From Gammaproteobacteria bacterium (GTDB lineage: Bacteria > Pseudomonadota > Gammaproteobacteria > Eutrophobiales > Eutrophobiaceae), in contig JBFFIE010000001.1 of assembly GCA_041556555.1 (NCBI GenBank), forward strand, positions 64,671 through 128,670: a stretch of 64,000 nt of DNA, written 5' to 3'. The position numbers were made by a program, and so were the translations under genes. The notes beneath the pieces were generated by a model, which was not told the origin of the DNA, did no database searches, and was given only the letters and a program-made list of their open reading frames with translations. Positions 16,943 to 20,573 of this stretch are shown here, in pieces; positions within the stretch are counted from its first letter, which is position 1, and the number at the start of each line of letters is the position of its first letter.

Positions 16943-18883
16943 ATGAGTAAAATATCATTAAGTAAATGGCTTATAGCCGCGCTGGCCTTAATGGTATCGG
17001 CTCCCTCATTTGCGAACGATGAAGTTCGTAAACTGACGGAAAACCCGAACTATTGGGCCTATCCAGGTGGTAACTACTGGAACTGGCGTTATTCTGAGTT
17101 GAAGCAAATCACTAATAAGAACGCTGGTGACATTGTTGCTGCTTGGACGTTCTCCACAGGTCGCCTGCAGGGCCACGAAGGTGGACCGCTGGTGCTGCCA
17201 AGCAGTGCCACTGGTCTGTCCTCAGATCACCTGTACATCCATTCATCCTTCCCGAACGATGTGTTCGCCATCAATCTTGATACCTTGAACATCACCTGGT
17301 ATTTCGAACCACAGCAGGACGAAGCTGAAACCGTTCCTGTGATGTGCTGCGACATCGTGAACCGTGGTCTGGGTTACAGCATGGGTCAGATTTATCTGCA
17401 ACAGGCAGATACTCTCCTGGTCGCTCTGGACGCCAAGACCGGTAAGGTGAATTGGACGGCAGAAAACGGTCGTGACATCGGTTACGGTCCTGCCGCTGGT
17501 GACACCAACACCAACGCACCACACCCCATCAAGGACAAGGTCATCACCGGTTGTTCCGGTGCTGAGTTCGGCGTTCGTTGCTGGCTTGCTGCTTTCTATG
17601 CGAAAGACGGCAGACTGGCATGGCGTGCCTTCAGCATGGGTCCGGACGAAGACATCCTGTTTGATCCCAATAAGACCACTTCTCTGGGCAAGGTGGTGGG
17701 TAAGGATTCTTCTCTGAAGACCTGGTGTGCCAACTCTGACTGGAAAGCACCCGCTACTGGTCCCAACAGCTGTAAGACACTGGGCGATCAGTGGAAATCA
17801 GGTGGTGGTTCAACCTGGGGCTGGTGGCCTGCAGACTTTGAAGAAAACCTGCTGTACTACGGTTCAGGTAACCCTTCAACTTGGAACCCGGTTGTCCGTC
17901 CTGGCGATAACAAGTGGTCAATGACCATCTTCGCCCGTGACATCGACACCGGTATCGCTCGTTGGGTCTATCAGATGACCCCGCACGATGAGTGGGATTA
18001 TGATGGCATCAACGAAATGATCCTGGCTGACATGAAGGTCAAGGGTAAGCAGACTCCGGCACTGGTCCACTTCGACCGTAACGGCTTCGCTTACACCATG
18101 AACCGTAAGACCGGTGAACTGCTGGTTGCTGAGAAGTATGACCCTGCAGTGAACTGGGCTACTCACATTGACATGAAGACCGGCTATCCGCAGACCCTGA
18201 AGAAATACTCCACTCACTATAACGGTGAAGATGTTGTTTCCAAGGATATCTGCCCGGCCGCTCTTGGTACCAAGGACCAGCAGCCCGCTGCCTACAGCCC
18301 ACGTACTGGCCTGTTCTATGTTCCTACAAACCACGTTTGTATGACCTATGAGCCTGTCAGCTACGCTGCTGGTGGTAACGAGTATGTTGCAGGCCAGGCT
18401 TACGTTAACGCTAACCTGACCATGTATCCTGCTGGTGCCGTTTGCCCAGAATGTCCAAACAACAATGCTGCCAAGGACAACATGGGTAACATGATCGCCT
18501 GGGACGCTGACAAGGGTAAGATCGTATGGTCAATCCCTGAACAGTGGTCAGTATGGTCAGGCGTTCTGGCTACCGCTGGTGACGTTGTCTTCTACGGTAC
18601 CCTTGATGCTTACGCTAAGGCTGTTGATGCCAAGTCCGGCAAGCTGCTTTGGAAGTTCAAAGTACCTTCCGGCATTATTGGCAACTTCAACACCTGGGCT
18701 CATAAAGGCAAGCAGTACGTTGGTGTCCTCGCCGGTATCGGCGGATGGGCTGGCGCTGTGGTTGCTATCCCAGGCTTAGCTGCTGCACCTGATACAGCTG
18801 CTCTTGGTGCGGTCGGTGGTTACAGAGCTCTTCTGAACTCCTCCCGTAACAGTGGCGTGCTGATGGTGTTCTCACTGCCGTAA
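16943..18883 (+). CDS. xoxF: Lanthanide-type PQQ methanol/alcohol dehydrogenase (XoxF-like)
   Basis: 646-aa ORF with a signal peptide. Motifs: [10 protein letters not shown] (vicinal disulfide), SGAEFGVR (metal Glu), [10 protein letters not shown], and [13 protein letters not shown] with the D-Y-D arrangement (Asp instead of the Ala of Ca-type MxaF). Confidence 0.85.
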
Positions 18884-18919
18884 GCAAAAGCTTTAAGCAA
18901 TTAAGTTTGTTTAAGCGAG

Positions 18920-18950
18920 TCCCCGGCATCTCAGATGCCGGGGATTTTTT
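18920..18950 (+). terminator. Rho-independent terminator after xoxF
   Basis: tCCCCGGCATCtcaGATGCCGGGGatttttt: a 10-11 bp GC-rich stem, a 3-nt loop and a T6 run. Confidence 0.75.
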
Positions 18951-19095
18951 ATTTATCAGTACCACTATAGGATTCATTGATACATATTCGGACCAGAGTA
19001 ATCATGTCCACGAACTAATTATTATCAAGATTGTCTCATAAGATGTGCATAGTCTTATTCTATAACTTATTGATATATATAGAGAATATGGTAAT

Positions 19096-19124
19096 TTGAA
19101 TGTAGGGTATGCAGACTCTATAAT
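19096..19124 (+). promoter_or_regulatory. Candidate sigma70 promoter for the pseudoazurin/xoxJ unit
   Basis: TTGAAT, a 17-nt spacer, then TATAAT (perfect -10). It lies about 50 nt upstream of the ATG at 19174, in an AT-rich spacer after the xoxF terminator. Confidence 0.4.
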
Positions 19125-19173
19125 CTGCGGCTCGATTTAATAATAAATAAATCTTTTCCGGAGAATTTTTAAC

Positions 19174-19614
19174 ATGAAATTTTTAAAACAATATTCACTG
19201 CTACTTACTTTGCTGGCCATGTTTATGCCGACTTTGTCCCAGGCCGCCGATATCGCGGTTAATGCGGAGGCACGGGTCTTCAATCCTGAGATCGTTTACA
19301 TCGAGCTGGGTGATACAGTCAAATTCAATAATATGACTTCACATAATGCCGTCACTTACGTTGCCCCGGAAGGTTCCAAGGGTTTTGGTACCAAGGGTGA
19401 ACTCCCGGGTGGCAGCTTCAGTGCGACCCCCGACAAGGAAGGTATCTATGGCTATGCCTGCGAACCCCATATCGGTTTTGGTATGGTGGGTGTGATCGTC
19501 GTGGGCCCAGTGACCCAGGAAATGAAAGACGCTGCCAAGAAGAAGGCCATGGAAACCCTGGAAGGACCATTTAAACGGATTATTGGCAAGATTAACAAGA
19601 TTGAAGTTAAGTAA
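19174..19614 (+). CDS. Pseudoazurin-type blue copper protein (cupredoxin)
   Basis: 146-aa ORF with a signal peptide. The ligand pattern is His (MTSHNAV) plus YACEPHIGFGMVG (Cys-x2-His-x4-Met), with a C-terminal helical extension typical of pseudoazurin. Confidence 0.8.
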   Translation: MKFLKQYSLLLTLLAMFMPTLSQAADIAVNAEARVFNPEIVYIELGDTVKFNNMTSHNAVTYVAPEGSKGFGTKGELPGGSFSATPDKEGIYGYACEPHIGFGMVGVIVVGPVTQEMKDAAKKKAMETLEGPFKRIIGKINKIEVK

Positions 19615-19633
19615 ATTCTATCCTGCTAAGAAG

Positions 19634-19669
19634 GCGGTGCTGGTGCTGGCCTGATGGGGTCAGCACCGC
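19634..19669 (+). terminator. Possible weak terminator/attenuator hairpin after the pseudoazurin gene
   Basis: GCGGTGCTG, an 18-nt loop, then CAGCACCGC followed by aaattttatt. The long loop makes it weak. Confidence 0.3.
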
Positions 19670-19709
19670 AAATTTTATTAAGGGCAGCTATAAATTGACT
19701 GAGAGAATT

Positions 19710-20573
19710 ATGATAAGACAACACATCAAAATTTCCATGAAGCAGATTCTATTACCTGTCGTCTTGCTTGCCGGTATTTTCAATGTGGCAAATGCGGCAG
19801 AAAAGTTTGAAACACTCAAGGTTTGTGCTGACCCATTCATGTTACCGTTTTCCAATAATGAAGAAAAAGGTTATGAAAACCGGATCGCTGAATTATTTGC
19901 TGAAAAACTCGGCGCAGATCTCCAATACACCTGGTTTCCTCAGCGTATGGGGTTTATCAGGAACACCTTGAAGAAAGAAGAGGGCACCAGCGGAAAATAT
20001 GCCTGTGACCTGGTAATTACTGTTCCTTCCTCATTTGAACTGGCCGCAACTACCAAGCCCTATTACACCACGTCATACGTCCTGGTCTATAAAAAAGGCA
20101 TTGGTCTGGATGACTTGAATGACCCGCAGATGTTTTCCGAATTCGTCAAAGAACACAAACCGGATATCAAGTTCGGTGTTAGTGATCGTGGACCCGGACA
20201 ACTCTGGGCCATGAACCAGGGCATGATGAGCAGTGATCATATGGTTCCATACCAGGGCCAACCGGGTGATGCCAGGGTGCATCCGGGACAACGGATGATA
20301 GAAGACATTGCTGCAGGAAAAATCGATGCCGCCGTGATCTGGGGACCAACCGCTGGTTATTATGCCAAGCAATTCAAGGACCAACAGGAATTCGTACTCT
20401 TGCCAATTCCCGATGACAAAAGCAACCGCGAGATGAAATACACCTACAGCATGTCCATGGCGGTGCGTTATGGCGAAAAGGAATGGAAGGAGACGATAAA
20501 CAAATTGATTGATGAAAACAGCAAAGCGATCGATAAAATCCTCACCGATTATGGTATTCCATTAGTCAAATAA
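19710..20573 (+). CDS. xoxJ: XoxJ/MxaJ-like quinoprotein-dehydrogenase-associated periplasmic binding protein
   Basis: LKVCADPFMLPFSNNEEKGYENRIAELFAEKLGADLQYTWFPQRMGFIRNTL matches the MoxJ family pattern. The start is ambiguous (TTG 19695, ATG 19710, ATG 19737). The signal peptide is MKQILLPVVLLAGIFNVANA. Confidence 0.8.
   Translation: MIRQHIKISMKQILLPVVLLAGIFNVANAAEKFETLKVCADPFMLPFSNNEEKGYENRIAELFAEKLGADLQYTWFPQRMGFIRNTLKKEEGTSGKYACDLVITVPSSFELAATTKPYYTTSYVLVYKKGIGLDDLNDPQMFSEFVKEHKPDIKFGVSDRGPGQLWAMNQGMMSSDHMVPYQGQPGDARVHPGQRMIEDIAAGKIDAAVIWGPTAGYYAKQFKDQQEFVLLPIPDDKSNREMKYTYSMSMAVRYGEKEWKETINKLIDENSKAIDKILTDYGIPLVK

Follow-up and report, generated by a model that had tools for sequence, protein, structure and literature searches.

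A pseudoazurin-like copper protein in the xoxG position beside a lanthanide-type methanol dehydrogenase of marine Gammaproteobacteria

To our knowledge, the characterised methanol dehydrogenases of the MxaF/XoxF family all hand their electrons to a dedicated c-type cytochrome. Here we describe a locus in a 64,000-nucleotide stretch of DNA (the window; positions 64,671 to 128,670 of the forward strand of contig JBFFIE010000001.1, assembly GCA_041556555.1) from an uncultured marine gammaproteobacterium (Eutrophobiales; Eutrophobiaceae), in which the gene between xoxF and xoxJ encodes a pseudoazurin-like cupredoxin. We think it fairly probable that this cupredoxin has taken over from XoxG the role of accepting electrons directly from XoxF.

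The closest described systems are the canonical xoxF-xoxG-xoxJ clusters, represented by the XoxF5 enzyme of Methylorubrum extorquens AM1 (6OC5) and by 37 loci of our survey (e.g. L108 of Methylobacterium, and L066). The window locus shares with them the enzyme clade, the residues for lanthanide and pyrroloquinoline quinone (PQQ), the XoxJ family and an order of three genes, of which the middle one encodes a small secreted redox protein. In the canonical clusters, however, that middle protein is a TIGR03874-type cytochrome, whereas the window has a type-1 copper protein without CxxCH; the window XoxF also carries subclade-specific insertions, and a conserved terminator parts xoxF from the downstream genes. 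The xoxF-xoxJ loci of Methylococcales (L117 of a Methylomonas metagenome-assembled genome (MAG) and L122 of Methylotuvimicrobium sp. KM1; 6DAM) likewise pair a gammaproteobacterial XoxF5 with a slot that lacks xoxG, but there no carrier gene lies between xoxF and xoxJ, while the slot of the window holds the cupredoxin.

Copper proteins do serve other quinoprotein dehydrogenases. Amicyanin is the obligate first acceptor of methylamine dehydrogenase and is encoded in the mau cluster, which thus resembles the window locus in placing a cupredoxin gene in the operon of a periplasmic quinoprotein of C1 metabolism. Methylamine dehydrogenase, however, uses tryptophan tryptophylquinone where the window XoxF is predicted to use PQQ and a lanthanide, and amicyanin belongs to a different cupredoxin subfamily, the best structural matches of the window cupredoxin being pseudoazurins. 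Azurin is the acceptor of ADH IIB of Pseudomonas putida HK5 (relative 1KV9), a PQQ alcohol dehydrogenase that shares its superfamily with XoxF, but in quinohaemoproteins of this kind the electrons first cross the enzyme's own haem c domain. The window XoxF lacks a haem domain, so here the copper site would need to take electrons straight from PQQH2. The classical pseudoazurins (Paracoccus pantotrophus 1ADW/4BWU, Hyphomicrobium denitrificans 3EF4 and Methylobacterium extorquens 1PMY) share with the window cupredoxin the fold, the two C-terminal helices and the spacing of the H/C/H/M ligands, but they are only about 30% identical to it and have no xox gene context. As far as we know, they are donors to nitrite reductase and not acceptors of methanol dehydrogenase.

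Among the papers available to us, our literature search found none linking XoxF to a copper acceptor. For Methylophaga nitratireducenticrescens GP59, two pseudoazurin genes appear among the supplementary rows listed (PMC6697039 supplement), and neither of these lies beside a PQQ dehydrogenase gene. New here are an XoxG-like rival cytochrome, the linkage of cupredoxin and xoxJ away from xoxF, the outcome of a topology test on the number of replacements, RNA contigs over the locus and the conservation of the terminator.

The dehydrogenase and the copper protein beside it

Three genes make up the core of the locus:
16943-18883, + strand: xoxF, lanthanide-type PQQ methanol dehydrogenase, XoxF5-like, 646 residues (TIGR03075, 621.7 bits; cut-off 480.05)
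19174-19614, + strand: pseudoazurin-like type-1 copper protein (cupredoxin), 146 residues, in the xoxG slot (PF00127, 43 bits)
19695-20573, + strand: xoxJ-type periplasmic binding protein (TIGR03871, MoxJ_2, 248.6 bits; cut-off 212.15), with a likely start at the ATG at 19737, upstream of the signal peptide

This layout, proposed in the initial annotation, is borne out by the open reading frame (ORF) map and the profile scores. The accompanying claim that no ORF with CxxCH occurs in 14.8-21.4 kb also holds: a scan of both strands of 14800-21400 finds no real one, and the sole CxxCH falls in a 29-codon frame.

Judged by bit scores to solved relatives, the enzyme is XoxF5-type, in agreement with the XoxF type first assigned to it. 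Its nearest solved relatives are 6DAM (772 bits) and 6OC5 (744 bits), both XoxF5, which outscore the XoxF2 enzyme 4MAE (531), the MxaF proteins (at most 526) and PedH/ExaA (about 250). The protein carries the vicinal pair C135-C136 and the stretch W351-D352-Y353-D354-G355, in which D354 is the extra Asp that marks lanthanide enzymes; D352, D354, C135 and C136 are invariant across an alignment of 42 XoxF sequences (A2). Lanthanide-dependent methanol oxidation by the window XoxF is predicted from its family, and pqqC is present in the source genome (G000; 98% complete, 92 contigs). The XoxF5 of Grimontia marina is tabulated as an active, La-Nd-dependent lanthanide enzyme (PMC11845868); Grimontia is a genus whose xoxF locus likewise has a cupredoxin (L068, Grimontia hollisae).

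The enzyme also carries a mark of its subclade. An insert of eight residues near XoxF residues 85-95 is found in all 16 aligned subclade members and in none of the 25 other XoxF5 sequences of A2, the cytochrome-partnered XoxFs of that alignment among those without it. Further inserts of the inner subclade to which the window XoxF belongs (about residues 262-282 and 497-513; window 17700-18500) hold Cys pairs, C262/C277 and a C-P-E-C near 500, and Cys213 stands there in place of the usual Gly after GAEFGVR.

The product of the slot gene consists of a signal peptide followed by about 122 mature residues. Its putative copper ligands, H57...C96-x2-H99-x4-M104, are the pseudoazurin set named in the initial annotation, and all four are invariant in an alignment of 40 homologues. 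An AlphaFold 2 model built from these homologues (predicted local distance difference test, pLDDT, 94.6) has a beta-sandwich and C-terminal helices at 115-128 and 131-141, and the top 17 Foldseek matches of this model are all pseudoazurins, with template modelling (TM) scores of up to 0.76 by target. Taken together, alignment and model indicate an intact type-1 copper site that is predicted to bind copper. The protein scores 64.7 bits on the pseudoazurin equivalog profile TIGR02375, under the cut-off of 109.85, and is therefore called pseudoazurin-like here rather than a member of the curated equivalog. Across syntenic loci, its identity drifts between 35 and 90% while that of XoxF stays at 75-97%, and the ligands remain unchanged.

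Conservation of the arrangement and the downstream unit

The arrangement recurs throughout the family. In the comparison set of 36 same-family genomes, two of which (G001 and G002) belong to the genus of the source genome, the cupredoxin is detected in 30, and 24 have the order xoxF, cupredoxin, xoxJ and the gene for a 260-residue protein; one further locus is cut by a contig end, and one genome of another family shows the same four-gene order. Such recurrence places the adjacency far beyond chance.

We further surveyed 80 XoxF5 loci, with contigs taken from one genome per species. In 37 of these loci, the slot ORF, flanked by xoxF and xoxJ, encodes a cytochrome with CxxCH. None of the 37 belongs to the subclade of the window XoxF (20 loci, about 63% identity or more), where the slot holds a cupredoxin gene in 14 loci. 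This subclade has full support on the XoxF tree (Shimodaira-Hasegawa-like approximate likelihood ratio test, SH-aLRT, 100), which includes 19 of the 20 loci, 13 of these with the cupredoxin. The survey of homologous neighbourhoods called for at the outset thus shows an adjacency conserved over a whole XoxF subclade and not a sporadic one.

Outside the subclade, a cupredoxin occupies the slot in only three XoxF5 loci, all from Vibrionaceae (Grimontia hollisae and two Enterovibrio; L068, L077 and L078); Grimontia hollisae and Enterovibrio spp. are cultured carriers of the arrangement. These three loci have an extra ORF of 126-130 residues without Pfam match between the cupredoxin gene and xoxJ (L068:7345-7725, L077:7616-7993 and L078:7393-7782). 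A quick XoxF tree needs two cupredoxin changes, one in the main clade and one in the Vibrionaceae. The approximately unbiased (AU) test does not reject a single cupredoxin clade (p 0.516), and the tree constrained to it is slightly better; we therefore count one or two replacement events, no more, and do not claim two independent swaps, given this p value for joining the Vibrionaceae to the main clade.

Within the arrangement, xoxJ lies 3' of the cupredoxin gene in every syntenic locus, and two MAGs keep cupredoxin-xoxJ modules apart from their subclade xoxF. Because the pair stays together even away from xoxF, the tightest linkage of the cupredoxin is with xoxJ. Tandem copies also occur: at L061, two cupredoxin genes follow xoxF (L061:7004-7648 and L061:7824-8288), the first encoding a long Pro/Ala-rich N-terminal region and possibly membrane-tethered, and genome G064 has a tandem pair before xoxJ.

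Four further features flank or divide the core genes:
15287-16150, - strand: SoxY-SoxZ-like fused carrier, associated with quinoprotein dehydrogenases, divergent from xoxF (TIGR04557, 231 bits; cut-off 140)
18917-18947, + strand: intrinsic terminator, a 14-pair hairpin with a T-run directly 3' of xoxF
19096-19124, + strand: sigma-70-like promoter candidate of the cupredoxin-xoxJ unit (TTGAAT-17-TATAAT; consensus match only)
20603-21385, + strand: conserved fourth gene of the module, for a secreted 260-residue protein without assigned family

The terminator and promoter first proposed from the window's letters are both found, the latter as a consensus match. The hairpin keeps its position in seven genomes, with compensatory changes in the stem, and the promoter candidate has 10 of 12 consensus matches, the best in 14-22 kb, and is conserved in G001 and partly in G002. 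Metatranscriptome assembly contigs from three studies (marine sediment, sediment/soil and seawater) are near-identical to the window over xoxF, and separate contigs start near 19093 or 19118, cover the cupredoxin gene and reach into xoxJ; in the four runs checked, no contig bridges 18898-19054. Such contigs prove neither transcripts nor transcript ends nor levels, and their depths, like the uncovered 18898-19054, are unusable quantitatively. They fit a separate cupredoxin-xoxJ unit behind a terminator and thus give a weak hint, consistent with the earlier suggestion that the copper protein and xoxJ are regulated separately.

The 260-residue protein has no match in Pfam or NCBIfam, and an Atlas search returns only clusters of hypothetical proteins, the single lead being a weak DUF3108-like match (0.85). 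Its gene comes after xoxJ not only in cupredoxin-type loci but also in some loci of the cytochrome type, from Burkholderiales. Elsewhere in the window are a second PQQ-propeller protein (3551-5329, - strand; TIGR03075, 431.7 bits, under the cut-off of 480) and two neighbouring ORFs for multihaem c-type cytochromes (59313-60419, - strand), one of 198 residues with four CxxCH and one of 170 residues with two.

Rival acceptors and other roles for the cupredoxin

The reading most in competition with direct transfer from XoxF to the cupredoxin holds that the acceptor of XoxF is a c-type cytochrome whose gene lies outside the locus, with the cupredoxin as a downstream or branch carrier, comparable to cytochrome cH, and its place in the operon incidental. 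The source genome does encode an unlinked XoxG-like cytochrome, which is a genuine rival acceptor and counts against direct transfer to the cupredoxin. Although nothing in this genome reaches the cut-offs of TIGR03872, TIGR03874 or TIGR04494, a 146-residue monohaem cytochrome on contig C7 (- strand; L126:8329-8769) scores 100.8 bits on our own XoxG profile, which was built from 37 xoxF-adjacent XoxGs and gives true XoxGs 144-221 bits. On TIGR03874 it scores 40.6 bits, which is far under the cut-off of 161.75 but can be likened to the weakest true XoxGs (range 41.7-235). The absence of xoxG noted in the initial annotation accordingly stands at the locus but not genome-wide, sporadic as this cytochrome is.

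Several observations speak against this cytochrome as the usual partner. It has two Cys only, where TIGR03874 is named for four, and its neighbours, SDR and SnoaL-like genes, are unrelated to methanol oxidation and not conserved in relatives. Only 8 of the 36 family genomes have homologues with 55% identity or more, and same-genus G002 is not one of them. Moreover, 12 family genomes that keep xoxF-cupredoxin-xoxJ, ten of them at least 97% complete, lack the C7-type cytochrome and have no match to our XoxG profile at E<=1e-10, and MxaG exceeds its cut-off in only 2 of the 36. Absent as it is from many carriers of the cupredoxin cluster, an XoxG-type cytochrome cannot be the general partner of the subclade XoxF, though it may contribute as a partner in the source strain. 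In other genomes, other class-I cytochromes would have to fill this role, and we regard the whole explanation as unlikely, though not negligible.

Several further observations weigh against a cupredoxin tied to XoxF. In the Methylococcales loci L117 and L122, the slot contains neither a cupredoxin nor a cytochrome gene, and these loci show that the gene for an acceptor can lie elsewhere and need not adjoin xoxF. Two members of the subclade itself, L050 and L058, have no cupredoxin beside xoxF, and at locus L042 of genome G029 the cupredoxin (L042:1268-1692) is split over two frames by a frameshift or an assembly error. In addition, the source genome has a cupredoxin paralogue (L127:5259-5891; contig C29, - strand) that is 56% identical over the domain, carries an N-terminal extension of about 85 residues and sits in a housekeeping context of gidA/gidB/parA and polyamine genes. 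Because this paralogue scores equally high on the family profile, the family may act generally as a carrier. Relatives also have this long form, in ORFs of 213-259 residues; in one family genome (G015/G063 contig C111; L151 and L155) it lies about 1.3 kb from an XoxG-like cytochrome of the C7 type, a proximity that favours an unlinked cytochrome as acceptor, and in the same genome xoxF (L054) stands alone, without xoxJ. Docking, the hand-over of electrons from PQQH2 and their later passage to an oxidase are deductions. Methylohalomonas lacus, a cultured organism whose XoxF belongs to the subclade, encodes two members of the cupredoxin family elsewhere and no XoxG-like gene.

A second alternative, which we consider quite improbable, is that the cupredoxin serves another xox-linked process rather than a respiratory exit: redox maintenance of XoxF (the Cys-Cys disulfide or the extra cysteines), copper handling, or joint action with XoxJ, the SoxYZ-like carrier or the 260-residue protein. 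The constant co-location of the cupredoxin with xoxJ and the 260-residue gene, the extra cysteines of subclade XoxFs and the nearby SoxYZ-like carrier would all suit such a role. However, an invariant type-1 copper site in a pseudoazurin fold is an electron-transfer module and not a chaperone site, and the cupredoxin occupies the exact slot of xoxG. The SoxYZ-like gene is present near xoxF in cupredoxin-type and cytochrome-type loci alike and is therefore not specific to the carrier swap; the 260-residue gene also accompanies cytochrome-type loci, so neither explains it.

The remaining alternative is that the cupredoxin is a general denitrification carrier donating to the cd1 nitrite reductase NirS and that its adjacency to xoxF is functionally meaningless. 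It draws on the donation by pseudoazurin to cd1 nitrite reductase in Paracoccus and on a NirS cluster with NirS paralogues in the source genome (L163-L165; contig C2, 111986-119470), which has a third haem-copper oxidase homologue, probably an NO reductase, in its vicinity. We hold this alternative to be very improbable. The cupredoxin keeps its position even where XoxF identity falls to about 63-65%. NirS, detected in only 7 of the 36 family genomes and in neither G001 nor G002, against 24-25 with the xox-linked cupredoxin, cannot explain the conserved xox linkage and was rejected as its general partner. NirK and cytochrome c peroxidase were also looked for in the source genome and not found.

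The proposed electron route and its significance

Replacement of XoxG by the cupredoxin as direct acceptor remains the reading we hold to be the more probable one. It draws its support from a subclade slot free of cytochromes, a conserved gene order, copper ligands that stay invariant despite drift, and carriers that lack XoxG. To these can be added the linkage of the cupredoxin to xoxJ, the insert in XoxF, the separate RNA contigs and the failure of classical pseudoazurin partners to explain the linkage. The identity of the gene, the intact copper site, the replacement in the slot, its conservation over the clade and the absence of XoxG and MxaG from many carriers are observed directly. From gene position and co-occurrence, we infer electron transfer from XoxF to the cupredoxin.

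We propose that, in an ancestor of this gammaproteobacterial XoxF5 subclade, a pseudoazurin-type gene displaced xoxG between xoxF and xoxJ (non-orthologous displacement) and that its product would act as a dedicated periplasmic one-electron acceptor of XoxF. Methanol would be oxidised at the La/PQQ site of XoxF, as expected from the family, and Cu(II)-cupredoxin, docked near the active-site funnel, would then re-oxidise PQQH2, taking one electron in each of two steps. Pseudoazurins have a midpoint potential of about +250 mV. The resulting Cu(I)-cupredoxin may pass its electrons to a terminal oxidase, directly or via another carrier; the source genome encodes oxidases of the cbb3 and aa3 types and has three haem-copper oxidases in total. 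The cupredoxin gene, xoxJ and the 260-residue gene appear to form a second, lower-output unit after the xoxF terminator.

A complex prediction for mature XoxF and mature cupredoxin, both supplied as alignments, gave a score of 0.00, which speaks neither for nor against binding. Bulk isoelectric point and net charge separate neither cupredoxin-clade from cytochrome-clade XoxFs nor cupredoxins from XoxGs, and an electrostatic argument was dropped on these grounds.

A bolder form of the proposal makes the cupredoxin the obligatory, haem-free first acceptor of an entire XoxF5 subclade common in marine water and sediment and lets it also feed the cd1 nitrite reductase of the source strain directly. 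Electrons would then run along a short periplasmic chain from XoxF through the copper protein to NirS, so that methanol oxidation would drive the reduction of nitrite and bypass the bc1 complex. We judge this form distinctly improbable.

If the cupredoxin is indeed the acceptor of XoxF, blue copper would represent a new electron exit from a lanthanide enzyme, and methanol respiration in abundant marine methylotrophs would be tied to the availability of copper and not of haem iron. Genomes with xoxF only would have to be reread, as the lack of xoxG could then no longer be taken as the lack of an acceptor. The arrangement is directly testable, since cultured bacteria carry it.

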